A stretch of 64,000 bases of DNA from positions 7,275 through 71,274 of IMG/VR virus record IMGVR_UViG_3300037760_000038, one strand, 5' to 3'. This document shows positions 4,762 to 24,183 of this stretch, in pieces (the stretch's first letter is position 1; each line of letters opens with the position of its first letter). The notes beneath the pieces were generated by a model. That model searched no databases and was not told the origin of the DNA. It saw only the letters and a program-made list of their open reading frames with translations. The position numbers and the translations under genes were made by a program. Origin of the DNA: a virus (taxonomy: Duplodnaviria > Caudoviricetes).

Positions 4762-5118
4762 TCAGGCTGCCAGCTGGTAGGCGAAGTCCCACGCGCGGAA
4801 CCCGCAGATCTCGTCGGTGTCGGCGTCGAGAATCTCCGTCGTGTCGGCCACCACGGGCGCCCGGTATGCGGCGAGCTTGCCCGCGCGGTGCAGGGTGTAC
4901 CCCGTGATGCGGTCCAGCCGGAAAGTGTGGCGGGTGGCGCTGCGCCGATCGAAGCACTCGATGGTCACGTCGCCCTTAGCGCTGACACGAACCGCGTGGA
5001 TCTCGATCGCCCGGCGGCTGACCTCACCGTTCGCCTTCATGTACCGAATGGTCACGGCGCGCTGCGCGTCCATCGCGCTGACCAGGTGGGCCATGGTGTT
5101 CGCGGTGACCTTACGCAT
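4762..5118 (-). CDS. stand-alone WYL domain protein
   Basis: VTIRY..NGEVSRRAIE..FDRR..RHTFRLDRI. Confidence 0.85.
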   Translation of the reverse strand: MRKVTANTMAHLVSAMDAQRAVTIRYMKANGEVSRRAIEIHAVRVSAKGDVTIECFDRRSATRHTFRLDRITGYTLHRAGKLAAYRAPVVADTTEILDADTDEICGFRAWDFAYQLAA

Positions 5119-9640: not shown

Positions 9641-10948
9641 TCACTTGGCGAGATCGACCATTCGCCCACGAATGTACTCGTCGGCGTCAGGATCGCGCTT
9701 CGGGCGCAGTTCGAACGACGCACGATGAAGCTTGTCCCAGGGCACCCCCTCGGGTCCGCCGTCCAGTTGCTGACGGACCAGCAGCTTGGTTTCCTCGACC
9801 AAGTTACCACTCGGGTTCTGCGCGGCGTCGTGGACCAGTTGCCACGCGACGGCCGGATAAACGCCTGACAGCACGAGTGCGTCCTTGATCTCGGCCGACA
9901 ATGACACGTTCGCAGCCTGCCGGGCGTTCTCGGCCATCCGCTTTGTGCTGACGTGCAGGCTCTCGACCAGGTTCACGGCCTTGGTGACCATGTAGTGCGT
10001 TAGCGTCGCGGCAGTCGGCAGCGCTACCCGCTCCACGCTCGAGTGCGAGATGTCGCGCTCGTGGTGGAGCGCCTGACTTTCCATGACCGGCACGATCTGC
10101 GCCCTTACCAGTCGAGCCAGCCCGCACAGCTGCTCCGACGTGATGGGGTTCCGCTTGTGCGGCATTGCGCTTGACCCACGCTGGCCGACAAAGAACCCTT
10201 CGGCCAGCTCACCGACCTCAGACCGCTGACCAAGCCGGATCTCGGTTGCCAGCGACTCGATGACCGTGGCCAGTTGCGCGCACGCGTGAACGAAGTCGGC
10301 GTAGCCGTCTCGGTTGGCGACCTGCGTCGCGGTGTTCGGAGCGGCCAGCCCGAGCGACTGACACAGCGCGCGCTCTTGATCCCACGTGATGCGCTTGTAG
10401 TCGCCGACCGGGCCAGACATCTTGCCCTCGACCCAAATGTGCCCTGCGCCGAATCGACGTTCGGCGCGGTAAGCCAGGTCTGCGAAATTGGCTACCCGCC
10501 ACCCCCACGTAGTGAGTTCAGCCCATTGGCCGTGAGTGCGACCGGGGCGGATGGCGTTCCAGTGCTCGAGCGCGTGAAGCGCCAATGCGCCCGTGAAGCG
10601 CTCGGCTGCGTCGAAGATCAGATTACGGGACTCCTTGACGCGTAGGGCATATGCGGTGTCCACCAGGTCGGACGAGGTGACGTGCCGGTGAACCCACTCA
10701 GCGGCGTGATCTGGCAGGTTCGACCGCCAAGCTTCGACGAACGCCACCACATCGTGCCGGGTGTGCTGCTCGTGTGCTTCGATGTGATCGCGGGTCGGCC
10801 AGCGTTCGGCGTCCATCATGAGGTCGAGCACTGGCTGCGGCGCTCCGAGCGCTCGAGCCATGTTGAACTCGACCAAAGCCCACAACTTGGGCTTGTTGTC
10901 TTCTGACCACACTTCGCGCATTTCGGGTGTGGTGTACCGATCCAGCAT
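9641..10948 (-). CDS. purB: adenylosuccinate lyase
   Basis: TRHDVVAF, HRHVTSSDLVDT, GRTHGQWA, GKMSGPVG and fumarate-lyase signature GSSAMPHKRNP. Confidence 0.95.
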   Translation of the reverse strand: MLDRYTTPEMREVWSEDNKPKLWALVEFNMARALGAPQPVLDLMMDAERWPTRDHIEAHEQHTRHDVVAFVEAWRSNLPDHAAEWVHRHVTSSDLVDTAYALRVKESRNLIFDAAERFTGALALHALEHWNAIRPGRTHGQWAELTTWGWRVANFADLAYRAERRFGAGHIWVEGKMSGPVGDYKRITWDQERALCQSLGLAAPNTATQVANRDGYADFVHACAQLATVIESLATEIRLGQRSEVGELAEGFFVGQRGSSAMPHKRNPITSEQLCGLARLVRAQIVPVMESQALHHERDISHSSVERVALPTAATLTHYMVTKAVNLVESLHVSTKRMAENARQAANVSLSAEIKDALVLSGVYPAVAWQLVHDAAQNPSGNLVEETKLLVRQQLDGGPEGVPWDKLHRASFELRPKRDPDADEYIRGRMVDLAK

Positions 10949-10964
10949 ACGCTCCTCTTTTCGG

Positions 10965-11249
10965 TCAGGTCAGCTTGCGTGAGGGGTGATGGAACGAGAT
11001 GGTCTTGATGGTTCCCGACACCAGAGAAATCCGGCTGCTGTTGGTCCATCCCGCCTGGTCGAATTCGGCAGTGAACGCTCGGTGCACCAGGTCCCGAGTT
11101 GCCACAGTCAGTGGAACCAGCAACACGATGGCCAGCTTCTTGGGTCGATACGAAACCCACACCTGGTTTTCGACTCCAGGTGCCTCAGATCGGACGATCT
11201 GCATTGCGCGGTCTATGACCGGCGCTGCGTCTTCAGCCAGCTTTGTCAT
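10965..11249 (-). CDS. hypothetical protein, paralog of 8430-8732
   Basis: leaderless start just after the 11256 promoter; shared motifs. Confidence 0.7.
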   Translation of the reverse strand: MTKLAEDAAPVIDRAMQIVRSEAPGVENQVWVSYRPKKLAIVLLVPLTVATRDLVHRAFTAEFDQAGWTNSSRISLVSGTIKTISFHHPSRKLT

Positions 11250-11255
11250 AGCACT

Positions 11256-11285
11256 ATTTTATCACGCAGTTTGCCCGGTGCGCAA
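11256..11285 (-). promoter_or_regulatory. promoter (drives 10965-11249 and purB)
   Basis: TTGCGC-18-TAAAAT. Confidence 0.8.
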
Positions 11286-11328
11286 GTAAGCCCCCCGGCT
11301 TTGGCAGCCGGGGGGCTCGTCGTTGACG

Positions 11329-11484
11329 TCACTTGAGATCACGAAGTTTGATCTCCTCGGTATCGCCGGTCGCGGGGTCAGTGACCGTAACCATGTCATC
11401 GCCCTGGTGTCGAGTCGAAGCGTCGGTCACCATGACGTTCGTGGGTCGATCGCCCTGATCTTTTCGGTCGGTGAACCATCCCAT
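11329..11484 (-). CDS. 51-aa hypothetical protein (not in the ORF track)
   Basis: RBS GAGGAGG; MGWFTDRKDQ...EEIKLRDLK. Confidence 0.55.
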   Translation of the reverse strand: MGWFTDRKDQGDRPTNVMVTDASTRHQGDDMVTVTDPATGDTEEIKLRDLK

Positions 11485-11620
11485 CTGTGTGCACCTCCTC
11501 GGTGTGCGCCGTTACCTACCAGCGTACACCCGACTTGCCGTCAGGGCAAGTAGGCGCACAGGAGCGCGCGGCATCACGCGGGGGCGCACGAGTGCCGTTA
11601 TAAAGCTGTTATTCTCCGAA

Positions 11621-11685
11621 CTTGCGTCAACCGCAAGGGGGTGATAAAATTGTATTTAGAGGTTGAGGGAAAGCCCAAGACCACA
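11621..11685 (+). promoter_or_regulatory. promoter, perfect palindrome and copy 2 of the 41-bp repeat
   Basis: TTGCGT-17-TAAAAT; CTTGCG-N5-CGCAAG at 11621-11637. Confidence 0.85.
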
Positions 11686-11702
11686 AAAACGAGGAGCCTA
11701 AA

Positions 11703-11870
11703 ATGTGGGGAACCTTCGAGACCGGTGACAAGGTCCAGTTCAGCCCGATCGTTGGCGGTGCCAAGGTCACCGTAACTCGGACCACGCACGGCGGTAACCG
11801 TGTCCACTTCACCTGCGACGAAACCGGCAAGGCCAGCTGGACCTACAGCCGGGAGCTGACCCGCCGCTGA
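11703..11870 (+). CDS. 55-aa SH3/KOW-like moron protein (not in the ORF track)
   Basis: RBS GAGGAG; MWGTFETGDKVQFSPIVGG...; followed by a terminator. Confidence 0.75.
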   Translation: MWGTFETGDKVQFSPIVGGAKVTVTRTTHGGNRVHFTCDETGKASWTYSRELTRR

Positions 11871-11885
11871 AACCCCCCCCCCACA

Positions 11886-11921
11886 CCGAAGCCCCCGACC
11901 TCTTCAGGTCGGGGGCTTCGG
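11886..11921. terminator. bidirectional terminator
   Basis: CCGAAGCCCCCGACC/GGTCGGGGGCTTCGG. Confidence 0.8.
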
Positions 11922-11930
11922 CTTGCGTCG

Positions 11931-12794
11931 TCAGCGGCCGGTCGAACCGAACCCACGATCTCCGCGTGCCTTGCTGCGGACCTGACCCCACACGGGCTGG
12001 AAGTCCTGGCCGGGGGCATGGTGCAGAATCAGCTGCGCGATGCGCTGTCCCCGCGTGATCTTCACGTCGTCGTCGCTGATCGACACCACGGGAGCGAACA
12101 GCTCACCCGTGTACCCTTCATCGATCACGCCGACCGTGGGGGCAACCAGTAGGTTGTGATTCTTGAGCGTCGAGCTGCGGCCGGTGATCTGAGCCCACAT
12201 GCCTTCCGGGATGTCCACGGACACGCCGCACGACACCACGCCCTGCCCGCGCGCCGGAATCACGGCGTCCTCAGCGGCGTACAGGTCGTATCCCGCGTCG
12301 TCGTTGTAGCCCTTGGTCGGCAGGGTGGCGCCAGTCTCGCGCGCCTCGAACACGATGGGCTCCGGCTGCTGGGTTGCCAGCAGCGACATGCGGTCACGCA
12401 GCCAGTCGAGACCAGCAGACACGTCATCGGCGGTCATGGGTACGGCCTTGACGTTGTCGCTGTCAGCCCACCCCGCGACAGCCCATGAACTCTGGCCCAT
12501 GTCGGTCACCAGCAGGACCGGCTTGAATCGGGCCGTCAGGTACCCGATCTCAGCCGGAACGCCAACAGTCTTAGCGCCCGAGGGCAGGAACGCCACCCCC
12601 CCGGTTGCCTCGTCCATCGCGGCCTGATTGATTCGGCTGACCGCTCCGTGGGGGGTGGCGCCGACCGTGAACGCCGACTTGGGGTCGTAAATGGTCCAGT
12701 CCATCGCGGCCATCTCGCCTTCAGCGCCGAGTACCAGCGATGTGTCCGCCGATCCGAAGTCGATAGGCTGAGCCAGGTAAACGGTAATGCTCAT
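11931..12794 (-). CDS. dut: nucleoside 2-deoxyribosyltransferase-like domain fused to trimeric dUTPase
   Basis: N-domain VYLAQP..YDP..PAEIGY..KPV; C-domain dUTPase motifs AGYDL, GRSS, GVIDEGYTGE, RIAQL, RGDRGFGSTG. Confidence 0.85.
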   Translation of the reverse strand: MSITVYLAQPIDFGSADTSLVLGAEGEMAAMDWTIYDPKSAFTVGATPHGAVSRINQAAMDEATGGVAFLPSGAKTVGVPAEIGYLTARFKPVLLVTDMGQSSWAVAGWADSDNVKAVPMTADDVSAGLDWLRDRMSLLATQQPEPIVFEARETGATLPTKGYNDDAGYDLYAAEDAVIPARGQGVVSCGVSVDIPEGMWAQITGRSSTLKNHNLLVAPTVGVIDEGYTGELFAPVVSISDDDVKITRGQRIAQLILHHAPGQDFQPVWGQVRSKARGDRGFGSTGR

Positions 12795-12857
12795 TGGGTT
12801 TCCCCTCCTTGTAGGGCTCGAACCTTAAATTCGAGCCCTACGGTTGGTGGTTGGCAG

Positions 12858-13646
12858 CTACTTGGTGTCGACGCCCGGCCAGCCGCCTGCGTCTCGGTTG
12901 CGCTGGGCCATCCGGCAGTACACGCCGACATCGTAGATCGTGTCGTCGCTCGGCCGGTCACCCCGCTTCACGGCATCGATCCACCTGCTCATCTTGCCCC
13001 GCAGGTAGAAGAAAATGCCGAGTTCGGTGGCCTCCTCATCGGTGACCTCACGCCCCATGCATTCCGCGAGGTCCCGGCCGATGTCGCGCAGGTCGGTGGA
13101 CCCGTACTCGATGGCCTTGGGCACCACTCGCTCAACTTCATCTTTGGCCTTGTCGAGCCACCAGTCGCCCAACGCCTTCTCGAGCTCCGACCGCAGCAGG
13201 TGACGAGTGTGGCTGACACCTGGACACGTGAACCACTCGGTCCTCGGGCCCGGCCGGTGAAGGTGCCGATCGTGCGCAGTGTCGGGATACGACGTGCACG
13301 GGTGGAACTCTGTGGACACCCCGTTGTGCAACAGTGGCTGGTCCGGGTGAACGTCGCGAACGTGCTTCGCCATCCGCTCCGACAGGTACGCGTCCCCGCA
13401 GAACTCGCAGTTGACGGACCCGGGTCCGTCGCGCTGGGGTTCGGCCCCGGACATCTTCGCGAAGTACGACTGGACCTCCCGCAGGACGCTGGCGCTCGGG
13501 TTGCCGGTCCGCAGATACGACTGTGGGTTGTGGATCGGGTCGTTGAACCGGTACTCGCACATCGCGCAGTCCCTGACGGTTCCGTCGACGTCCGTTGACC
13601 GTTCCGGCGCCAGCGGGTGCGGCGTTACCAGGTTGATCGCACTCAC
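12858..13646 (-). CDS. Zn-finger plus MazG-like (DUF1599-type) nucleotide pyrophosphohydrolase domain
   Basis: C-terminal helical domain with KAIEYG and DTIYDVGVYCRMA; GTGA overlap with the purZ stop. Confidence 0.55.
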   Translation of the reverse strand: MSAINLVTPHPLAPERSTDVDGTVRDCAMCEYRFNDPIHNPQSYLRTGNPSASVLREVQSYFAKMSGAEPQRDGPGSVNCEFCGDAYLSERMAKHVRDVHPDQPLLHNGVSTEFHPCTSYPDTAHDRHLHRPGPRTEWFTCPGVSHTRHLLRSELEKALGDWWLDKAKDEVERVVPKAIEYGSTDLRDIGRDLAECMGREVTDEEATELGIFFYLRGKMSRWIDAVKRGDRPSDDTIYDVGVYCRMAQRNRDAGGWPGVDTK

Positions 13647-14755
13647 GACACCCTCCGGATTCCCGTGGTCGGGGACGTGCCCACGAACCGAACCGGGGCA
13701 CGGGTCTCGATCTCGATGTCGGTGAGATACTTGTCCAGCTCCGATTCCGGCTGGATGATGTCGTCCCGCGTGTTCAGACCAGCCAGAGGCGGGAATACCG
13801 TATCGACCATGGTCAAAGCCAGCCGCACGACCGGGGCCCCGCCGTTGGCCTGGACCGCCCGTCGCACGAGATCGCCGTCCCACTCACCGACACGCCGCAC
13901 CTTCTGCGTTACGGTGGTGCGCTCGGTCGGAAGCCCCAGGGCGTCCCACGAGGTCTCGCCCTTCAGCGGCCCGCTGTTGCCTGCGACTCGGATCGGTCGG
14001 ACCCGTGCGGCCAGCCACACTTCGAACTCGCCCACAGCCGGGTGCCACGGACTCAGACCGGCCATGCTGAGGAAGTCCACGGCCCGGCAGTCGCTCGAAG
14101 TGCACTGCGGGTACCAGCCCGCGTGCTGGCCGAGTCCGTACCCCTGGGTGCCCTCGATCACGACCGTTTGGCCGTCATCGAGCATCCGGGTCAGTGCCCC
14201 GGCGGTGTCGGTGTCGGTGCGGCTCAGAGACCACTTGACGTCACCGAACAGAGGCGCCTCACGCCACACCCTGGCCGCCCGCGCCGCGCCGATGCCCTTG
14301 GCCGTCGACCCGAGCTTGCCGCTCAGCCCGCGCTCGACTTCCTCGGCCACATGCTGCGGCGTGAGGACCGTGGCGCTCGTGTCCACGTGCAGTCGTTCGC
14401 TGACGTTGTACCCCGCCGAGTTCAGCCGGTTGATCTCATCAGTCAGCACTTCCAGATCAACCTCGGAACCAGCCGCGACGACCAGTTCAGCCGCCGGGTT
14501 GCTCACCGCGCCGACCGGCACCGATCGCAGCTTCCATGGATGTCCGATCCACTCGCCGTTGAACAGGTGCTCATCGTTCGGCTGGCATCCCGGCGGACAG
14601 ACGCCAAACACGGTGTGTCCCGCGTTAGGTCCGGCCACTCGGACCACAGCAACGGGTCCGGAGTTGTGTTCCGGCCGAGTCAGCTGATCGACAACCGCTC
14701 CCTTGCCCTCACTGCCGAACTGCGCACCGCTGACGACGATCAGTCTTCCTGCCAT
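13643..14755 (-). CDS. purZ: PurZ0-like 2-amino-deoxyadenylosuccinate synthetase (PurA fold)
   Basis: GAQFGSEGKG (Ser at the PurA catalytic Asp), NAGHT, IEGTQGYGL, YPQCTSSD, RPIRVAG, TTVTQKVRRVG, TMVD. Confidence 0.85.
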   Translation of the reverse strand: MAGRLIVVSGAQFGSEGKGAVVDQLTRPEHNSGPVAVVRVAGPNAGHTVFGVCPPGCQPNDEHLFNGEWIGHPWKLRSVPVGAVSNPAAELVVAAGSEVDLEVLTDEINRLNSAGYNVSERLHVDTSATVLTPQHVAEEVERGLSGKLGSTAKGIGAARAARVWREAPLFGDVKWSLSRTDTDTAGALTRMLDDGQTVVIEGTQGYGLGQHAGWYPQCTSSDCRAVDFLSMAGLSPWHPAVGEFEVWLAARVRPIRVAGNSGPLKGETSWDALGLPTERTTVTQKVRRVGEWDGDLVRRAVQANGGAPVVRLALTMVDTVFPPLAGLNTRDDIIQPESELDKYLTDIEIETRAPVRFVGTSPTTGIRRVS

Positions 14756-14860
14756 TTGCAGTCACCTCCTGCGTGTTACTTGGGCTGGCTCGTTCAGCGC
14801 CGGGTTGCCCATTTCCGGCCGGACGTCGCGCGCGGTGGCGCGACGTTTCGCCGTTGCGGA

Positions 14861-15214
14861 TCAGAGTTCGAAGCCGAGAACTGAAGTCTGCGGCTCCTGA
14901 GTGCTGATCTCGACCACGATGGCCGACAGGTTGCGCACGTTCACGACGACCACCGTGGTCTCGTCGCGGACCGCGAACGCCAGGTGCTCCAGGATCAGCC
15001 GGTCAGCGGCAGCAACGAGCACGTCGATGTTGGCCGCAGCGGTGGTGAACCACTGCCCACAGAACGCTGACGCATCGGCCATCTTGTAATACGTCCGCAG
15101 CCGGACGTGCTCGGTCTCAGCGGTGTTGCGGTGGTTCTTGTCGAACTGAATCACCAGGTCGGCCAGGTCCTGATCGTTCGCGGCCTCGTTCCTCATGGTG
15201 CTGAGCAGTTCCAT
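14861..15214 (-). CDS. hypothetical protein
   Basis: RBS GAGGAG; first gene after the 15252 promoter. Confidence 0.7.
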   Translation of the reverse strand: MELLSTMRNEAANDQDLADLVIQFDKNHRNTAETEHVRLRTYYKMADASAFCGQWFTTAAANIDVLVAAADRLILEHLAFAVRDETTVVVVNVRNLSAIVVEISTQEPQTSVLGFEL

Positions 15215-15251
15215 TTATGCTCCTCAGGTGGTGCGCGGCGGTGTTATGACT

Positions 15252-15281
15252 AGTCTACCACACTACTTGTCACGATCGCAA
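15252..15281 (-). promoter_or_regulatory. promoter of the purZ operon
   Basis: TTGCGA-18-TAGACT; CTTGTC-N5-CGCAAG. Confidence 0.75.
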
Positions 15282-15335
15282 GTGGCCGGTATGAGCCGGG
15301 GCCGTTGCCACGATAGCAACGGCCCCGGGGTGAGG

Positions 15336-15503
15336 TCAGACGACCCGGACGGTCAGGACGTCGGTGATGGGGTTGGTTCCCCCGACCTGACCGATGCTGG
15401 CCATCAGGTCGTTCTCCACGAACTGCACCAGGTCGTCGGTGTCGGTGCCCTCAGGCAGAGTCACGGTCACCTGCACGGTTACGGTCACGTCGCTGTCAGC
15501 CAT
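15336..15503 (-). CDS. 55-aa acidic hypothetical protein (not in the ORF track)
   Basis: RBS AGGAGG; MADSDVTVTVQV...TVRVV. Confidence 0.65.
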   Translation of the reverse strand: MADSDVTVTVQVTVTLPEGTDTDDLVQFVENDLMASIGQVGGTNPITDVLTVRVV

Positions 15504-15548
15504 TGTTCCTCCTTGGCGCCGGAAGACGGTCTTCCGGCTGCTGACACC

Positions 15549-15579
15549 AGCCTATCACACCTCTTGCGGCCAGCGCAAG
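15549..15579 (-). promoter_or_regulatory. promoter with perfect palindrome
   Basis: TTGCGC-18-TAGGCT; palindrome at 15563-15579. Confidence 0.75.
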
Positions 15580-15584
15580 TTACC

Positions 15585-16130
15585 TCACAGCAGTCGGGCG
15601 AGATCACCCGGGGTCACATCGCACGACATTCGGCCGTCGTCGAACAGGGTCACTCCTGCCCACGTGTATATCCGGTCGACAGCCTGCGAACAGATCAGGC
15701 GATCAGACCGCTGAACCCGCCGCTTGACCCACTTCGGCCGGACATAGAACCGGTACATCGCTAGGTAGACGTACGTACCCCAGTTGTACCCCACGCCGAC
15801 CAGTCCTCGGGCCTGCGTTACGATCTTGACCCGCTGTTCCAGCGTGAGAGTGAGGGCCGGTCGGCTGTGGTCCCGGAGAACCCACCGCCGGACCACCGAA
15901 ACCGGCCGATCAGCGTACCGCTCGATGGGCGTGATTACCGCTCCGCCCGGCTGAGCTTCGAACACCGTGCCGTCGTCCAAGACGACTGCCGCGTGAGTCC
16001 ATCTGCTCATGTCGAAGTTGAGCGCTTGGAGCAGCCATACCGCCACCCCCGCCCATCCGCTGATCCGAGTCAGTATGATGTCTCCGGGCTGAAAGTTGAA
16101 ATCGCGCCCGGTTGTGGTGAATCTGGTCAT
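15585..16130 (-). CDS. permuted papain-like NlpC/P60 (YiiX/YebB-like) amidase
   Basis: QPGDIIL, WTHAAV (His before Cys), GYNW, LICSQAV. Confidence 0.85.
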   Translation of the reverse strand: MTRFTTTGRDFNFQPGDIILTRISGWAGVAVWLLQALNFDMSRWTHAAVVLDDGTVFEAQPGGAVITPIERYADRPVSVVRRWVLRDHSRPALTLTLEQRVKIVTQARGLVGVGYNWGTYVYLAMYRFYVRPKWVKRRVQRSDRLICSQAVDRIYTWAGVTLFDDGRMSCDVTPGDLARLL

Positions 16131-16402
16131 ACGGGAACCACCTCCGTTGAGCCCTCGTGGCCGTGGATACTGATCAGGTCGTCCAGGTTCCGATACAGAA
16201 CCAGGCTGGACCGGTCGCCGTGCCACTTCATAACGGCCTCTCCGTTTGGCAACACCGCGATATCGGCAACACTTCCGGTGCCGCTGATCCCCGTGACATC
16301 GCGGTGGCGTTCCAGAGTGTACCATCGGACGTCAGCAGGTGGGTCGCCGTAGGATGCCACGACGATATCCCGCAGTGGCCAGTCCAGTAGCTTGCCTGGC
16401 AT
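16127..16402 (-). CDS. conserved actinophage hypothetical protein (start uncertain)
   Basis: RHRDVTGISGTG..W..S..HGHEG motif; ATGA coupling. Confidence 0.65.
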   Translation of the reverse strand: MPGKLLDWPLRDIVVASYGDPPADVRWYTLERHRDVTGISGTGSVADIAVLPNGEAVMKWHGDRSSLVLYRNLDDLISIHGHEGSTEVVPV

Positions 16403-16416
16403 CTCAACTTGAGTTA

Positions 16417-16899
16417 TCAATAGCCTTGCCCTCTCTTGAGGATTTTTCGACAGTGGAATTCGCCCAGACACTCAGCGTCTTTCGCGTGCCCGCCGTGTCC
16501 GTAGCTGGCCCACTCGACGTGAGGTCGAATCGGTGGTTTGAACTCCCGTTGCTTGAACAGTGCTTTGTGGTCGCGCGGTCGGTACCCCACGCACGTCACC
16601 CCTGCCCGGCGGCACACATGCCGTATCGCGCCGATCATCTGGCTGGTCAAGAATTCCGACCCCTGCTGCTGAGCCATCAGAGCACCCCGCAGCCGAAATT
16701 CTTCGTACACTACCAGAGTCAACCCGCCGCTCGTGATCTCGGCTATCAGATGATCAACGGCGTCAGCCGGGCTGGTATGCACGGCCTCGAAGCACACGAA
16801 ACGGTGCCACTTGGTCAACCCGACGTTGCGATCACCAGGGTCAACAGCCCACCAGTAATCCGGCAGTTCCTCAAACTCGAATTGCTGGTGGGCTGACAT
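16417..16899 (-). CDS. RuvC-like Holliday junction resolvase
   Basis: AVDPGDRNVGL, VVYEEF, HAKDA. Confidence 0.8.
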   Translation of the reverse strand: MSAHQQFEFEELPDYWWAVDPGDRNVGLTKWHRFVCFEAVHTSPADAVDHLIAEITSGGLTLVVYEEFRLRGALMAQQQGSEFLTSQMIGAIRHVCRRAGVTCVGYRPRDHKALFKQREFKPPIRPHVEWASYGHGGHAKDAECLGEFHCRKILKRGQGY

Positions 16900-16912
16900 T
16901 AGCTCTCCCGGG

Positions 16913-17812
16913 TCACGACTGGGGCTCCGGGGCGCTCTCAGGGGCTGCCGGGTCCTCAGGCCCGTCCGGCTTCTCCTGGAGCCTCCGAACGGCCGTCACG
17001 GGCTGGTGCGAGGTGACGTTTATGACTATGGTCTCACGGGGCTCCGGCTTCCAGTAACGCACGGGCTTGCCCAGCTCCTCAGCATAAGCGACTTCCGCCC
17101 GAGTGCTGTCGCCGACGTATCCGCCGGGTGCGACCACAAGCACTTCGTCACACGCCCGGATTTTGGCACGGTGCAGCTCATCGAGCCGCGCCTTCAGCTC
17201 CTGGGCGTCGTCGGGGTCGGCCCACAGATCGTGCGGCTCCTTGAGGTTACACCCTGGCTTCAGCACCAGGCGCCCGGCCGCTGTCTCACGCCTGTCAGCT
17301 TCGACCATCTCTGACCAAAACCGCGTGGAGCCGGAGATGGTGACGATTCGGTCGATGCCCAACGTGCGCATGGCATCGCGCATCTGCTCGTCGGGGCTGT
17401 TGAAACGAGCACCCTCGAGTTCGTACGTCAGAGCGTTGATGCGTCGGTCGGCGACAGAGGGCTTACCGTGCATAACCTCGGCTTCGGCTTCAGCCCACGA
17501 GGTGAACCGGTAGGCGCGGTCGTCGATGTACACTCGGGCGGCCAGCTTGCGGTTGGTGACCAAGATCAACCCCTGGTCGTTCCAGAACGTGCGGCCGAGG
17601 TCCATGTCGATCGTGACGTTAACGCCGTGCTGAACGAGCCACTGCGCCACCTGCCCCGTTCCGCGCGTGGTGAACACGAACACGGGCTCGGCTGCGGTCA
17701 TTCGGTGCAGGGCGTCGATGGCGCCTTCGACCGGAGAATCGTAAACGCTGCCGTCCTGCCAGCCCTTGGAGTACCGATGGATTACTCCATCGAAGTCAAC
17801 GGCGATGGTCAT
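16913..17812 (-). CDS. HAD-family phosphatase fused to a nucleoside 2-deoxyribosyltransferase-like domain
   Basis: IAVDFDGV, FTTR, YIDDRA; then TISGSTRF..HRAKI..DEVLVV..GDSTRAEVAYA..GKPV. Confidence 0.75.
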   Translation of the reverse strand: MTIAVDFDGVIHRYSKGWQDGSVYDSPVEGAIDALHRMTAAEPVFVFTTRGTGQVAQWLVQHGVNVTIDMDLGRTFWNDQGLILVTNRKLAARVYIDDRAYRFTSWAEAEAEVMHGKPSVADRRINALTYELEGARFNSPDEQMRDAMRTLGIDRIVTISGSTRFWSEMVEADRRETAAGRLVLKPGCNLKEPHDLWADPDDAQELKARLDELHRAKIRACDEVLVVAPGGYVGDSTRAEVAYAEELGKPVRYWKPEPRETIVINVTSHQPVTAVRRLQEKPDGPEDPAAPESAPEPQS

Positions 17813-17831
17813 GGGGCTTGCCTCCTGTTTG

Positions 17832-18101
17832 TCAGTGAAACGGACGCCAGTCACCGGGCCTGGTTGAGATGAACTTAGCAACCCGGCAGTCTAGCTTTTT
17901 GACTCGATAACCCACCAAGTGGCCTTGGGGGTTAGTAGTGAATTCACCGCACTCGCCGCAGTGGTAATGCGTGTTGCGTGGTTGATCGCATTCCGGTTTC
18001 AGACACTGCTGAGGGTCCCGGGTGTGGGCCGAGGGAAGCACCTGGTTGGCAAACTTCCCTCGGCCCACGACGCCGGTACACTCAGAACACCGGCATGGCA
18101 C
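17832..18101 (-). CDS. small Cys/His-rich hypothetical protein
   Basis: HYHCGECG; contains a 15-bp perfect inverted repeat at 18024-18068. Confidence 0.45.
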   Translation of the reverse strand: MPCRCSECTGVVGRGKFANQVLPSAHTRDPQQCLKPECDQPRNTHYHCGECGEFTTNPQGHLVGYRVKKLDCRVAKFISTRPGDWRPFH

Positions 18102-18675
18102 CGGTCACCACATCGAACACGTCACGCGCCCACCTGGCGTCAGGCAGTGCAGTGTGTGACGTGTGCTTGGACGGGGGATGGACGCCGACGCGTCGACTGA
18201 TCTCGGCCGAAGACCACGGCACCGGGACTTCTTCACCTCGGCCAAGCAACCACCCGGCGGCCAGTTCCAACGCGTTCACGGGCCGGTAGTGCCAGGGCGA
18301 TTCGTCCGGGTTGCCCAGCAGCTTCCGGGTGAACGTCGCGTCGAACTGCGTGTTGGACCCCACCAGCACCGCACCGGCCATGGTCTGCATGAGGTTCTGA
18401 CGCAGCGTGCTGAGTTCGATCCTCTGCGCGTGGTCGCCCAGCATTAGGGCAGCCCGAGCGTCGTCGGGGACCTTGAACCGGTCGTGGAACCGGTTGATCT
18501 TGAGAGCTTCGTCGTCAGCGATCACCAGGTCCGGCCGGACCTGGTAGACCCGCTCGGTGTCGGTCTGACCCGACCGCCGGGTGATGATGGCCAGTTCCCA
18601 CACCTCGTGGCGGTCAGGATTCAGACCAGTGGTTTCCGTGTCGATGAAGACAATCGGCCGGTCATTGGGGGTCAC
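18082..18675 (-). CDS. DEDDh 3'-5' exonuclease (DnaQ/oligoribonuclease-like)
   Basis: FIDTETTGL, GSNTQFD, HTALPDA. Confidence 0.9.
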   Translation of the reverse strand: MTPNDRPIVFIDTETTGLNPDRHEVWELAIITRRSGQTDTERVYQVRPDLVIADDEALKINRFHDRFKVPDDARAALMLGDHAQRIELSTLRQNLMQTMAGAVLVGSNTQFDATFTRKLLGNPDESPWHYRPVNALELAAGWLLGRGEEVPVPWSSAEISRRVGVHPPSKHTSHTALPDARWARDVFDVVTGAMPVF

Positions 18676-19007
18676 GACTTGTTCTCCTTGGTTTCGACGG
18701 CCAGCGACTCAGCAGGCGCAGGCGATTTGGCGGCCAAATGCCCATGCTCGATGCATCCGCACGAGCTGGGGTCGCCGTTGACGATGTAGTGGTCGGGGTA
18801 CCCGGTAATCACGTCTTCCGGGTGATCGGTGTGGTCGTCAGGCCGAACGTTCTCCCAGTGCTCACTGACGGTCAGGAGGTCGGACACACGCTCAGTGCTG
18901 CGGAGGCCGTTGCTCCACTTGATCTCAACGACCTCGGCGTTGACCTTGGTCACCGTGCCGGAGTTATTGTCGAAGTAGACCCGATCACCGGGTTTCAGGG
19001 TCGTCAT
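18672..19007 (-). CDS. SH3-like hypothetical protein
   Basis: MTTLKPGDRV..GTVTKV..VEIKW. Confidence 0.65.
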   Translation of the reverse strand: MTTLKPGDRVYFDNNSGTVTKVNAEVVEIKWSNGLRSTERVSDLLTVSEHWENVRPDDHTDHPEDVITGYPDHYIVNGDPSSCGCIEHGHLAAKSPAPAESLAVETKENKS

Positions 19008-19010
19008 GAC

Positions 19011-19490
19011 CTAGTTCTTCTTTCTCTGTCGGTACCGCTTAGCAGCGTCGGTTCGACAAGTTCGACACGATCTTCCGCTTCCGTCCGGTCTTTCGTACAG
19101 GTTATCTCCCAACAGAAGGTGCCCGTTTTTGCAGTGCGTTTTGCTGGCTTGAAAGTTGCGACCGTTGTTTACGGCGTCGCGCTGGTTATCGCTTAGAGTG
19201 CCGTACGACAGGTTTTCAATGTTGTTATTGGCGGGATTGTCATCCTTGTGTCGGACAACGTGGCCTTGCAGACGCGGACCGATAAACACCTCAGCAACCA
19301 GTGAATGCACAGACCGTTGGGTTGATACGCCTTCTGCCGTGGTCAGCCGCACCATTAGATGGCCGCCCCGAACCGGGTTAGGCGTCATCAACGAGCCCTG
19401 TTTGATCTTGGTCCAACTACGAACATTCCCGGCATCCGACACCTGATATAGGCCGTCGTAACCGGGAATGTCTCGCCACTGCTCGCTCAT
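19011..19490 (-). CDS. NUMOD4-HNH homing endonuclease
   Basis: WRDIPGYDGLYQVSDAGNVRS; VHSLVAEVF..RHKDDNPANNNIENL. Confidence 0.9.
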   Translation of the reverse strand: MSEQWRDIPGYDGLYQVSDAGNVRSWTKIKQGSLMTPNPVRGGHLMVRLTTAEGVSTQRSVHSLVAEVFIGPRLQGHVVRHKDDNPANNNIENLSYGTLSDNQRDAVNNGRNFQASKTHCKNGHLLLGDNLYERPDGSGRSCRTCRTDAAKRYRQRKKN

Positions 19491-19496
19491 ACTGCC

Positions 19497-19526
19497 ATTA
19501 TACACTACTTGGGGGAGTCCTAGCAA
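19497..19526 (-). promoter_or_regulatory. promoter for leaderless HNH mRNA
   Basis: TTGCTA-18-TATAAT, ATG 7 nt downstream. Confidence 0.75.
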
Positions 19527-19547
19527 GTGCTATGACGCGCGCATACG

Positions 19548-21890
19548 CTAGTCCTTGTCGTCCCAGGGGTCGGGCTCGATGCCAAAAGACATCTTGCGTC
19601 CTCTAACGTTGAAATAGTCGGTCAGAACCTTGTTTCCGATGTCGCTGACGTGCTGCGCTTCGGCATGGCCCTCCGGAGTATCATCGTGTTCAGTAATGAT
19701 TGAGTCATGCACCTGAAGTAGCATGCATCCCGGAATCTGGCGCTCAACCTCAAGCATCCAGTAAAGGACCGCTCTCGCGAGGTTGCCCTGAATTACCTGG
19801 TTGGGGGCGCTCACGGTCTTCTCGTCGACAGCGTACCAACGGCGCCAGCCGTCCAGCATCTTGAGGTAGCCACAGCCGCCGCTCCACCGGGTGACCTTCT
19901 GGACCGCCGTGTTGGAGAACTGCTTGATCTCGGGATTCTCAGCCCAAAACCGGTCCTTGGCGGTCTGCACATCGGAAGTCTTCATCTTCATGCCGGATGC
20001 GGCTTCCATCTGAGTCTGGATCGCCTTGACCCCACCCAAGTAGATGATGCCGAAAGTTCCGCGCTTGGCAGCTGATCGCAGGTCCTTGAACTGCGGGTGG
20101 CTCTCGTCGACGCCGAACAGAGCCTTGGTGTTGAGAGCGTGCATGTCCGCTCCGGCATCCAGAGCGTCCCAGAACTTGGTTGACCCGGAAATGACCGTCA
20201 CCACCCGCACTTCACCGGCCGCGAGGTCGTGCTCGAACTGAACGCGCTTGACCGGAGTCTTTTCGCGGCGTCCGTCGTACCGGACGACCTCGGTTCCAGC
20301 CGGAACCTGCCCGATCAGCTGACGGACCGGCACCGCGCCTTCTGGGATCAGTCGGCCGTGTGGGATTGCCTGCGCCTGCCATCGACCCACCGCCAGCCGC
20401 CCGGACTTGGCTCCGCCCTCAGCACCCCCCGCCCGCTCGCGGTCGTTCTTGCACTGCTTGAAGCTGGTGCGGATTCGGCCATCAGGCCCGGTGCGCGCAG
20501 CCCAACCAGTGTACCACTTGGAGTCGGAGTTACGCCGCTTGGTCCACAGCGCGTACTCCTTGGCCCAAGGCTGATCTTCAGCCGCCAGGCGCCGCAGCTC
20601 TTCGATGTCGAGCTTGGGTGCCTTGGTCTTCTCGGTTCGGGCCAACGGCTCCAGCCCTAGACCGTTCTTACCGCCGCACTCGCCGCACGAAGTCGCGCAA
20701 AACCTGGGGTGCGCAAAGTTCCATGCGTCGTTTGCTTGCTTCGCTCGGCTGCAAATCGGCCCGAAGTAGAACCGCTTGGCCTGGTTGGGCTTACTGGGAT
20801 CGAACGGCATGCGGGTGGCGAGTTCGGCGTTGAGCTGGCGGAGCTTCTCGCCCTCAGCCCACGACCTTTCGTGGTCATACGCCACCCCACGCCGTTCCAT
20901 GCGGTAAAGCGTGGTGCGCAGCTCCATTTCGGCTTGGTGGAGCTGCCAGAAGTTGGGCAGAACCGCGCCCGTTTCGGCTGCCTCGATCTGGTACTCCTGC
21001 AACGCGTGACCGAGGGCGGTGTCCTTGGCCGCGTACCGGCCGATCGATCCCGACCAGGGCAGCAGGTCGTACCGCTTGATCAGACCCGTGCCCTGCCGCT
21101 TGAGTTCGGCCTGAAGCTCGTACTCCTCGTCGGTGGAGTCGTCGCCCCACAGTCGACGGGCGGTCGGCTTGAGAGCAGCGGGGTGGAGCGGGTCGATGAG
21201 CTGCTTCTGAGTGACCATGGTGCACCAGATGGTCCGGCGCACGCCGGTCACGTCAGCCAGCGGCTCGAGGGTGGGTTCCATCATGTGGGTCTTTTGGGGC
21301 TGATCGGGTCGCCAGGTTCCCGGCTCACTGTCAGGGTCCCACGCGTACTGGCGATCCTTGATGGTAGAGTCGCCTCCTGCGGCTGCGCGCAGACCGTGGC
21401 GGAAGGTGTGCATGTCGTGCACCGAGTTGTGCATGCCGAGCGAGTCGCGCCGATCGAGCCACGCAATGAGCTTGGCGTACTCGCTGGCGGGAAGGTTGGG
21501 AGCTGCGTCTTCGAGAGTGACCGTTTGGCCCAGAACCTTCGAATACACGGCCAGCAGCCGGTCCTGCTCGGCGCGGGTGATCGGAACGAAACGGCAGACG
21601 CCGGTCTCGGGGTCCTTGATCGGGGAACCCGGCTTGCCAATCAGCGGGCCCTGATCGAAGGGCCAGGCGTAATCGACACGCTCGCCCGGGGACCCATCTG
21701 CGAGCGGCTGCCGGAACGACACCGACACCACGGACACACGGGCGGGGGGCTGAGAGGCCCGATTGCCAGCGGCGAACGGTTCTCCGTCGCCGAACAGGCC
21801 CGAACCTTCGGTATCCACGTAAACGAGCCAGCCCTTGGGCAGCTCCGGCAATTCGATGTCGCCGACGCGAGTTGTTGTGGGGTAGTTCAC
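19548..21890 (-). CDS. family A DNA polymerase (3'-5' exonuclease plus polymerase; DpoZ candidate)
   Basis: VDTEGSG, HNSVHD, YAAKD; motif A DLAAGEVR, motif B RSAAKRGTFGIIY, motif C LQVHDS; no 5'-3' exonuclease domain. Confidence 0.9.
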   Translation of the reverse strand: MNYPTTTRVGDIELPELPKGWLVYVDTEGSGLFGDGEPFAAGNRASQPPARVSVVSVSFRQPLADGSPGERVDYAWPFDQGPLIGKPGSPIKDPETGVCRFVPITRAEQDRLLAVYSKVLGQTVTLEDAAPNLPASEYAKLIAWLDRRDSLGMHNSVHDMHTFRHGLRAAAGGDSTIKDRQYAWDPDSEPGTWRPDQPQKTHMMEPTLEPLADVTGVRRTIWCTMVTQKQLIDPLHPAALKPTARRLWGDDSTDEEYELQAELKRQGTGLIKRYDLLPWSGSIGRYAAKDTALGHALQEYQIEAAETGAVLPNFWQLHQAEMELRTTLYRMERRGVAYDHERSWAEGEKLRQLNAELATRMPFDPSKPNQAKRFYFGPICSRAKQANDAWNFAHPRFCATSCGECGGKNGLGLEPLARTEKTKAPKLDIEELRRLAAEDQPWAKEYALWTKRRNSDSKWYTGWAARTGPDGRIRTSFKQCKNDRERAGGAEGGAKSGRLAVGRWQAQAIPHGRLIPEGAVPVRQLIGQVPAGTEVVRYDGRREKTPVKRVQFEHDLAAGEVRVVTVISGSTKFWDALDAGADMHALNTKALFGVDESHPQFKDLRSAAKRGTFGIIYLGGVKAIQTQMEAASGMKMKTSDVQTAKDRFWAENPEIKQFSNTAVQKVTRWSGGCGYLKMLDGWRRWYAVDEKTVSAPNQVIQGNLARAVLYWMLEVERQIPGCMLLQVHDSIITEHDDTPEGHAEAQHVSDIGNKVLTDYFNVRGRKMSFGIEPDPWDDKD

Positions 21891-22611: not shown

Positions 22612-24183
22612 TTAGCCTTCAAGCCACGGCCAGTCGGCCTTGCGACCCTTCTCGATGAGCGGGATCATGCGGAACGCGGCGTCGTTGAGACCACCGAAGG
22701 TGTGACGGTTTCGGCCGGACATGGCGTGACCGGCACGGTAACCCGCCAGGTTCCACGTGTACATCGGAACGTTGGCCGGGACGCGGTGACCCGGTTCGCT
22801 GCTGACACGCCAGTAGGAGCCGTGCGCTTGCTCGTCGGTGAGGATGACCACCCGATCGTGCCCGTGGTAGTGACGTCGGACGGCCTCCGACGTGTAAGTG
22901 CCACCCAGGTTCCGAAACCGGCCGACGATCTTCAGCACGGACTCAGCGTCATTGAACTCGACCGGCGCTGAGTCCGTGCCGAATTCAACCAGGTCCGCCG
23001 ACTCGGCGCGTAGCGCCAGCGCCGTGCCGAACACTGCTGCGGTGTCGGCGAAGTCGGCGTCAGACTTGGCAGAGTACGAACTGAACATCGAACCGGATCG
23101 GTCTACGAGGACCAGGGTACGGCCCGGCAGAGCCGGAACGTTCCGCAGGGACGCATTGAGTGCCAATTCCAGCGGCCAAGCCCACCGAAGCGACGGAGCA
23201 GACCGGTACGCGTTGAGGAACCGCAGCGGAAACTGACGAGACTTGATGACGTAGGCGCTGTCCGCCAGAGTGACCGCCACCTGCCGCGCGACCTTGTCCG
23301 ACACCCCGGACTCGTCGAAGTTGCGGAGATTGCGCAGCAGGGCCATGTAGCCCATCGTCGGAACCAGCGCCGACCAGAGATCGGCCTTGGGCACCTTCGA
23401 CCCGACCAGGCTGAGCGCGTCTTCCCAGGTCATGCCCGCCTTCCGCAAATTCTCCGAGTTCAGCATGGCGTTCGGATTCACGTCAGCCGACGTTCGCAGC
23501 GTTGCGTTGTGACGGACCATGGTCAGCTCGTCGGGGACGTCCGCACGACGGTCGTAGCGGCGAGCAACGGCGAAGCGGTACAGGGCGTTCTCGGAGTCGT
23601 TGCGGGGGCGCGGGTGGGCCAGCTCGATCACATGCCCGAACCGCAGGCCGTGAGAGGCGGTGTCATGCTTGAGCAGCGAGTACTCGTTGTACAGTCGGCG
23701 GATGGCGTCGATAAGCCCACGCTTGACCGACATCGGGACCTCACGGCCGTAGGTCTGAATCCAGTAGCCGAGCAGCTCGCCCGGCTCATCGGCGCGCTGG
23801 AGAACAGAATCGACGACCTGGCGATTGAAGCCGTGCTCGTCGGCCTCACGGCGTGCGTGGACGAATTCGGCAGCGCCGAGAACGGCAGCGGTTCGAAGGT
23901 TGGCGTCGTTGCGTAGCCAACGCAGCAGACCAGCGGTCCACTTCGGGTCGCTGACCGCCAGCTCGCGCAGCAGGATGCGGAACCGGCTGTCGCGGTCGGA
24001 AGCCGACTCATAGAACGAAGTCTGGCCGACCATGTTGGACACAGCCAGCAGGAACAGCTCGGACTTGTGGTCGCGGGTGAAGCCGGGAGCACCCTCGTGG
24101 GTGGTGGTGTCCGGCGTTGACGACACCGACGTGACGGGAGCGGACCCAACGGCGCGCACGCCCGGCTTATTGAATCTAGACAT
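22612..24183 (-). CDS. TROVE domain Ro60/Rsr RNA-binding protein
   Basis: THEGAPGF, FYESA..RD.RF, MTWEDALS, MGYMALLRNLRN, SRQFPLRF; vWA DRSGSM and ILTDEQ. Confidence 0.93.
   Translation of the reverse strand: MSRFNKPGVRAVGSAPVTSVSSTPDTTTHEGAPGFTRDHKSELFLLAVSNMVGQTSFYESASDRDSRFRILLRELAVSDPKWTAGLLRWLRNDANLRTAAVLGAAEFVHARREADEHGFNRQVVDSVLQRADEPGELLGYWIQTYGREVPMSVKRGLIDAIRRLYNEYSLLKHDTASHGLRFGHVIELAHPRPRNDSENALYRFAVARRYDRRADVPDELTMVRHNATLRTSADVNPNAMLNSENLRKAGMTWEDALSLVGSKVPKADLWSALVPTMGYMALLRNLRNFDESGVSDKVARQVAVTLADSAYVIKSRQFPLRFLNAYRSAPSLRWAWPLELALNASLRNVPALPGRTLVLVDRSGSMFSSYSAKSDADFADTAAVFGTALALRAESADLVEFGTDSAPVEFNDAESVLKIVGRFRNLGGTYTSEAVRRHYHGHDRVVILTDEQAHGSYWRVSSEPGHRVPANVPMYTWNLAGYRAGHAMSGRNRHTFGGLNDAAFRMIPLIEKGRKADWPWLEG

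Follow-up and report, generated by a model that had tools for sequence, protein, structure and literature searches.

A probable PurZ0-type module for 2-aminoadenine DNA in an uncultured Hiyaavirus-like phage, with a phage-encoded PurB-like lyase and a DmtZ-DutZ fusion instead of DatZ

How would a phage that encodes a synthetase for 2-aminoadenine (Z) DNA keep adenine out of that DNA when the HD-family enzyme DatZ is not found, and how much of the route to Z would such a phage carry by itself? Both questions are raised by a 64,000-nucleotide stretch (bases 7275-71274 of the 71,274-bp linear IMG/VR record IMGVR_UViG_3300037760_000038, CheckV completeness 87%), hereafter called the window, within which all positions are counted unless another locus is named. 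It contains genes for a PurA-like synthetase, for a protein of no named family that directly follows it (here called X), for a fusion with a dUTPase-fold half, for a PurB-like lyase and for a family A DNA polymerase. A sequence-only reading of these genes had seen in them a host-independent pathway that excludes adenine by another route. Based on the analysis reported here, we consider it very probable that the phage carries a PurZ0-type module for Z DNA, with its own PurB-like lyase, with a DmtZ-DutZ fusion replacing DatZ, and with X as an obligate, uncharacterised partner of PurZ0. The gene identities, the conserved catalytic residues, the clade membership and the synteny are directly established. 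The phage is a new member of the known PurZ0 group, ordinary for its clade, and represents no new pathway: DatZ absence and an alternative adenine exclusion are already published, and the phage PurB is already annotated in relatives.

The synthetase gene, purZ0 (13643-14755, minus strand; 370 residues), encodes a predicted N6-succino-2-amino-2'-deoxyadenylate synthetase of the GTP-type PurZ0 clade, an assignment made from PDB matches, a maximum-likelihood tree and motifs. The motifs quoted in the sequence-only reading, GAQFGSEGKG (residues 10-19), TTVTQKVRRVG and TMVD, are all present where it had placed them, and the protein matches Pfam Adenylsucc_synt (1.8e-33) and PHROG 1211, "2-aminooxy adenylosuccinate synthetase" (1.3e-81). 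In the PDB its sequence matches 7VF6 best by a wide margin, a PurZ0 from Gordonia phage Archimedes (1.9e-85, 290 bits), with the archaeal PurA 5K7X (4.4e-35, 125 bits) and the ATP-type PurZ enzymes of phiVC8 (6FM1, 1.8e-21, 80 bits) and S-2L (7ODX, 1.1e-15, 61 bits) following at lower levels. In a tree of 20 PurA, PurZ and PurZ0 sequences (no archaeal PurA among them), the window protein falls inside the PurZ0 clade (support 95/93) together with Archimedes, Ghobes, Wayne, Johann and the Hiyaaviruses, while the PurZ clade is separate (100/99) and bacterial PurA also stands apart. The alignment agrees with this placement: all PurZ0 and PurZ rows, the window protein included, carry a Ser in the P-loop (GSEGKG), where the two bacterial PurA rows read GDEGKG. 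All 147 phage PurZ-group sequences considered by Poubanne et al. (NAR 2026; PMC12884076) are reported to have this Ser at the position of the catalytic Asp13 of PurA. One passage of the paper (section 24) says the opposite of a bioRxiv introduction and of the usual description of PurZ0, and is probably a textual slip. The Asp that recognises guanine is also kept (TMVD in the window, (T/S)M(V/A/L)D or SFAD in other PurZ0, TKLD or NSID in PurA), and the three ATP-type PurZ rows read LNF(A/C)(Q/N)Y at the same segment, as judged by eye across a gap that MAFFT places there. By the best PDB match, the clade, the P-loop Ser and the retained Asp, then, the enzyme is of the PurZ0 type, as had been claimed, and by analogy with the characterised homologue it probably uses GTP.

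The window covers the greater part of the genome of an actinophage, uncultured and akin to the Streptomyces Hiyaaviruses (G+C ~62%, with nearly all genes on the minus strand). The nearest cultured relatives are the Streptomyces phages Keanu, Galactica, Hiyaa and Spocter (genus Hiyaavirus), which are 61-64% identical in the PurA-like protein. Since a near-identity DNA search against cultured phages returned a single 214-bp match, within the purB of Galactica, the phage belongs to a different species and probably to a different genus. PurZ0 relatives up to 69% identical are known only on metagenome contigs (40-90 kb), and many of them are closer to the window than the Hiyaaviruses are.

Two places downstream of purZ0, in the same operon, lies the dmtZ-dutZ fusion gene (11931-12794, minus strand; 287 residues), identified by its Pfam domains and by full-length alignment to Wayne-type fusions. 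The C-terminal half matches Pfam dUTPase (2.8e-27, residues 156-286), and the N-terminal half is NDT-like (Nuc_deoxyrib_tr, 1.2e-5, residues 5-102). The whole protein aligns with fused proteins from ~110 phage records, mostly Arthrobacter PurZ0 phages. Outside Hiyaavirus, the similarity search places proteins of PurZ0 phages first (Arthrobacter, 3e-39 over the full length; Microbacterium, 4e-24), and ordinary phage dUTPases reach no better than 1e-13. In an alignment of six sequences (window, Ghobes, Archimedes, Wayne, Lasagna and Galactica), Y6, D12, N56 and E82 of the window protein are invariant and correspond to Y6, D12, N77 and E103 of Ghobes DmtZ, the residues named as critical in that enzyme, with the Glu as the catalytic one (PMC12884076). 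The same work showed, for the Ghobes and Wayne enzymes, that DutZ converts dATP, which it prefers tenfold, and dGTP into the monophosphates, that DmtZ converts dAMP into adenine and can also move deoxyribose-5-phosphate onto the Z base, and that the Wayne fusion turns dGTP into dGMP and dATP mostly into adenine. By analogy, the N-terminal domain of the window protein is a predicted dAMP N-glycosidase/deoxyribose-5-phosphate transferase, and the C-terminal dUTPase-fold domain a predicted dATP/dGTP/dUTP diphosphatase. Upstream of this gene, between the stop codon of X and the dmtZ-dutZ Shine-Dalgarno sequence, there is a perfect 12-bp hairpin at 12811-12841 (arms 12841-12830 and 12822-12811, with a 7-nt loop and no T run), which might influence how stable the mRNA is or how strongly X and dmtZ-dutZ are translated relative to each other.

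The statement that the window holds no HD-family DatZ is borne out over the complete 71,274-bp record, where queries with Pfam HD, with the DatZ of S-2L and with the DatZ of an Acinetobacter phage (Bhz20) gave no match at E<=10. As a positive control, the DatZ protein query recovered the gene from S-2L and from one Acinetobacter phage; applied to Galactica, Ghobes and Wayne, whose genomes are complete, it found no DatZ, and none was found in 54 related IMG/VR loci. Absence of DatZ is the normal state of the PurZ0 clade, because, according to the published explanation, DutZ and DmtZ do its job: the pair stands in for DatZ and MazZ in PurZ0 phages, with dutZ present in 98 of 98 PurZ0 genomes and dmtZ in 85, of which 77 have the two fused (PMC12884076). 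The other route of adenine exclusion that had been postulated would thus be the one encoded in the same operon, which had already been characterised in PurZ0 phages.

Between purZ0 and the fusion lies the gene of X (12858-13646, minus strand; 262 residues). Its GTG start overlaps the purZ stop (GTGA) and is preceded, five bases upstream, by a GGAGGG Shine-Dalgarno sequence, so that the translational coupling of X to purZ proposed from the window is real. The conserved part of X is a C-terminal domain of ~105 residues (approximately residues 150-257), in which eight acidic and three basic residues are conserved and which, when folded alone, gives an AlphaFold2 model of four helices with a pLDDT of 92.5. 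The N-terminal part is variable, ranging from zero to >300 residues, with faint C2H2-like zinc-finger (Cys/His) matches in some members. A profile search over 1.8 billion representatives delimits a family of 945 clusters at 50% identity, whose 150 listed matches are all close members, with no bridge to a named family among them. In the 54 IMG/VR loci (which were collected through the X domain), purZ0 lies immediately upstream of X on the same strand in 53, the remaining one being cut by the contig end, and dutZ lies downstream of X in 53. Homologues of X also stand directly after purZ0 in Ghobes (gp51), Archimedes (gp51), Johann (gp55), Galactica (gp66) and metagenomic relatives. Additionally, two metagenomic proteins (P0121, 562 residues, and P0407, 491 residues) join PurZ0 and X in a single open reading frame, and these fusions, unless they are assembly frameshifts at the GTGA overlap, which they may be, support a direct functional link between PurZ0 and X.

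The X of the window belongs to no Pfam or PHROG family, nor did scans of 56 and 40 relatives give an informative one (the domain alone has no Pfam match at E<=10), and none of the 56 members matches a MazG-type family. The profile of the X domain showed no similarity to DUF5664-1 or to MazZ, with hhalign probabilities of 0.2% (Wayne DUF5664-1) and 1.5% (S-2L MazZ). Comparisons with the PDB (Foldseek and VIA-align, using both full and domain-only models) gave generic helical matches only, the best specific one being iMazG 2q73 at a probability of 0.5. In BFVD, ~20 weak but consistent matches were found to DUF6378, Nmad (nucleotide modification associated domain) and DUF1599 proteins (E 0.03-0.8), and the ESM Atlas gave a weak DUF1599 lead (0.89). 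The conserved acidic positions E205/E208 and D234/D235/D239 resemble an EXXE...EXXD pattern. The label "MazG/DUF1599-like" given to X is thus a reasonable lead which is not established: there is a weak, consistent resemblance in fold, and no sequence link to MazG families. The accompanying proposal that X could supply dGMP is not supported by sequence evidence, and the DutZ of characterised relatives already turns dGTP into dGMP.

The best surviving alternative concerns X alone, and holds that it is no enzyme at all and serves PurZ0 as a subunit of a structural or regulatory kind (helping, for example, in oligomerisation, channelling or specificity). The coupling through the GTGA overlap, the adjacency to purZ0 in 53 of the 54 loci, the two metagenomic fusions, the small size of the four-helix domain and the failure to detect any catalytic family are all what such a subunit would lead one to expect. 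However, the eight acidic and three basic conserved residues are rather what one would expect of a site that binds metal and nucleotide, the BFVD matches lead to phage proteins of the DUF6378/Nmad/DUF1599 kind, and the slot of X is filled, in the Arthrobacter PurZ0 phages, by DUF5664-1, an active pyrophosphohydrolase (PMC12884076). We regard the subunit role as a possibility to be kept in mind, clearly on the doubtful side.

The lyase that would complete the conversion is encoded by a purB-like gene (9641-10948, minus strand; 435 residues), recognised by Pfam Lyase_1 (3.7e-35), by the alignment of residues 1-378 to Bacillus adenylosuccinate lyases (2PFM, 3.1e-72; 1F1O, 4e-71) and by its catalytic residues. 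It starts 2,695 bp past the purZ stop, and the description of a complete purB ~2.7 kb downstream of purZ was accurate. The motifs TRHD, WVH and GRTHG, the TS(S/T)D segment and the signature loop GSSAMPHKRNP are all present, and H65, H87, H139, S259/S260, K265, N267 and E272 are at least 97% conserved across 72 phage-clade and 48 actinobacterial PurB sequences. The C-terminus departs from this pattern: cellular PurB matches carry the Pfam domain ADSL_C (PF10397), whereas neither the window protein nor ~70 phage-clade relatives match it, and in the window protein about 58 diverged residues stand there. In the phage clade, moreover, the Pro of AEPTT, which adjoins the catalytic His, is replaced to give AE(V/L)TT, and further clade-specific substitutions relative to the actinobacterial enzymes were listed, whose link to substrate specificity would need a structure. 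The nearest cellular relatives are actinobacterial PurB (45-49% identity). In a FastTree phylogeny, the 48 nearest actinobacterial sequences nest among the phage ones and Ghobes and Archimedes sit on a very long branch; since this tree has no wider outgroup, it gives no direction or number of transfers, and we make no claim on origin.

The presence of purB had been offered as a novelty, which it is not: a PurB-like lyase is annotated in Galactica, in the syntenic place, and in Hiyaa, Keanu and Spocter, as well as, in more divergent form, in the Gordonia phages Ghobes, Archimedes, Frizzle and Sapo, and it is common beside purZ0 in metagenomes. No PurB-like gene was found in the Arthrobacter and Microbacterium PurZ0 phages of the cultured-phage collection searched. 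Among verified cultured phages, PurB-like matches are almost all in PurZ0 phages. A PurB homologue lies near purZ0 in 17 of the 54 IMG/VR loci (10 of the 16 with full 10-kb flanks), synteny with purZ0 also being seen in the contigs of metagenomic relatives, and in eight loci the two genes are divergently transcribed neighbours, with about 100-150 bp between them. These eight (L021-L024, L026, L030, L031 and L033) belong to ~40-kb PurZ0 phages, with a layout unlike those of the window and of the Gordonia phages.

One may ask whether this gene is instead an auxiliary one of general purine metabolism, there to raise AMP/IMP synthesis, which purB may do in some large phages, and so no dedicated step in Z synthesis. 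For the enzyme the following can be said. Its catalytic core is that of an ordinary PurB, its nearest cellular relatives are the actinobacterial enzymes, and host PurB has been reported as sufficient in characterised Z phages; a purB is also annotated in Microcystis phage MaAM05, which is not among the PurZ matches listed. The linkage to purZ0 argues that the phage lyase serves the Z pathway, as it is tight in several lineages and includes the divergent neighbour with a common intergenic region; the concentration of PurB-like genes in PurZ0 phages among verified cultured phages and the changes shared by the phage clade (the replacement next to the catalytic His and the diverged C-terminal domain) also speak against a general role, which we consider unlikely. 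The favoured reading, based on sequence and linkage, is that the phage PurB-like lyase would cleave N6-succino-2-amino-dAMP into dZMP and fumarate. In the accessible papers up to 2026, this step in Z phages is assigned to host PurB; a phage lyase is not mentioned in PMC12884076, and one may be mentioned in the 2021 Science or 2023 Nature Microbiology PurZ0 papers.

Last in the proposed route stands the family A DNA polymerase (19548-21890, minus strand; 780 residues; DNA_pol_A 1.7e-20), a candidate DpoZ of the PurZ0-phage type. It is 70% identical to gp54 of Galactica, 28% to gp47 of Wayne (2e-59) and 27% to gp39 of Ghobes (2e-46), and its similarity to the DpoZ of an Acinetobacter phage is much weaker (E 7e-5). 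By pairwise similarity, which outside Hiyaavirus amounts to 27-28% identity, it is thus closer to the polymerases of PurZ0 phages, in agreement with the two-group picture of PMC12884076. Just downstream of the polymerase gene there is a gene for a DnaQ-like RNase_T exonuclease (5.3e-8, 18082-18675), which occupies the same place in the metagenomic relative L016. That relative also has, between polymerase and purZ0 (8717-9109 in L016), a 130-residue gene with a precomputed Pfam match to Acb5 (PF26761).

No guanylate kinase or nucleoside diphosphate kinase was found in the whole record, nor did any kinase turn up among the larger open reading frames of the window and of the 7.3 kb outside it. 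The step from dZMP to dZTP would consequently fall to the host, as it does in other Z phages, and the description of the pathway as self-contained and host-independent is not borne out. In its full form, that view combines independence from the host with an adenine-exclusion route of unknown kind and with X as a MazZ-like supplier of dGMP. It is true that both PurZ0 and PurB are phage-encoded, that DatZ was not found in the record, that X fills the slot held by MazZ or DUF5664 in other Z phages and that its fold weakly resembles phage proteins of the DUF6378/DUF1599 type. Each of its three parts, nevertheless, meets an observation that goes the other way: no nucleotide kinases were found, the known DmtZ-DutZ pair is in the same operon (PMC12884076), and dGMP is already produced by homologues of DutZ, while in sequence X resembles none of MazG, DUF1599, DUF5664 and MazZ. 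We therefore judge this view quite improbable.

In the module that we favour, the DutZ half of the fusion (11931-12794) would hydrolyse dGTP to dGMP and dATP to dAMP, and the DmtZ half would then destroy dAMP, releasing adenine, with the additional ability to pass deoxyribose-5-phosphate to free Z base. PurZ0 would join dGMP with aspartate, probably with GTP, after which the phage PurB-like lyase would free fumarate to give dZMP. Host kinases would convert dZMP into dZTP, which the phage family A polymerase would incorporate. Several points weigh against this scheme. All the enzyme activities, as well as the presence of Z in the DNA, are predicted from characterised relatives, and the GTP preference of PurZ0 comes from a single characterised homologue that is ~50% identical. 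The NDT domain scores 25.9 bits, under the Pfam gathering threshold of 28.8, and Pfam ADSL_C does not recognise the diverged C-terminal domain of the phage PurB, so that full activity is not guaranteed. Finally, the record is ~87% complete, and a gene may lie in the absent part. That the module is present while the phage DNA is unsubstituted, or only partly substituted, by Z is the weakest of the alternatives, very improbable even for an uncultured phage known from sequence alone and with no published Hiyaavirus base analysis found in the searchable literature, since all known components of PurZ0-type Z DNA are intact and conserved across a large clade, which is hard to explain without selection for function.

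Elsewhere in the window, a 523-residue protein (22612-24183) contains a TROVE (Ro60-like) domain (5.2e-17), and the early region encodes a vWA-TerF-like protein (2096-2983, 9e-36) and a small WYL-domain protein (4762-5118, 5.3e-7). The 7.3 kb of the record that lie outside the window gave no Pfam match.

With this window, another uncultured, Hiyaavirus-like member is added to the PurZ0 phages with Z DNA, and the points worth following are the under-discussed clade of phage PurB and, above all, X. The latter is tied to purZ0 about as faithfully as dutZ is, which makes it the obvious next enzyme or partner to characterise, and its role matters for rebuilding the Z pathway in other hosts. The linkage of phage PurB to purZ0 in many lineages, in turn, makes a possible tuning of the lyase by phages for the 2-amino-deoxy substrate testable. 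As a tentative generalisation, whose chances we put somewhat below even, PurZ0, X and DutZ may form a three-part core outside the Arthrobacter phages, in which X is the obligate partner (either a new family of deoxynucleoside triphosphate pyrophosphohydrolases or a subunit that feeds or regulates PurZ0), together with a specialised, remodelled PurB in a large clade of soil phages. If this were true, the whole conversion of dGMP into dZMP would be phage-encoded in that clade.

Compared with known systems, the window is closest to Hiyaa, Galactica, Keanu and Spocter, with which it shares the order PolA ... PurZ0, X, NDT-dUTPase fusion ... PurB-like lyase, at identities of 61-64% for PurZ0, 70% for PolA, 58-61% for the fusion, 51-53% for PurB and 55-84% for the X domain; the N-terminal part of X differs in length, the protein having 262 residues in the window and 315-450 in the Hiyaaviruses. 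The Gordonia phages Archimedes and Ghobes are also of the PurZ0 clade, with an X homologue (gp51) right after purZ0 and with both DmtZ and DutZ, but in these phages the latter two are separate genes, whereas in the window they are fused. Their PurB-like lyase (gp36 / gp38, 365-377 residues), which is 34-36% identical to that of the window and lies on a very long branch, is encoded ~7 kb away on the other strand, unlike in the window. The Arthrobacter phage Wayne (Korravirus) has the same DmtZ-DutZ fusion architecture (36-39% identity over the full length) and a PurZ0 that is 46% identical, and it carries DUF5664-1 (PF18909) in the slot held by X in the window phage. The clusters of S-2L, of Vibrio phiVC8/VP5 and of the Acinetobacter phages follow the same overall logic as the window, with a PurA-derived synthetase bearing the P-loop Ser, a small nucleotide-pool gene directly after it, and a family A or PrimPol polymerase nearby. 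The PurZ of the S-2L, phiVC8 and Acinetobacter clusters, however, is of the ATP type (26-29% identical to the window PurZ0, without the Asp of the guanine pocket), and these clusters rely on HD-domain DatZ and on MazZ/DUF550, neither of which was found in the window phage; their PurB step is described as host-encoded, whereas the window phage has a PurB-like gene of its own.

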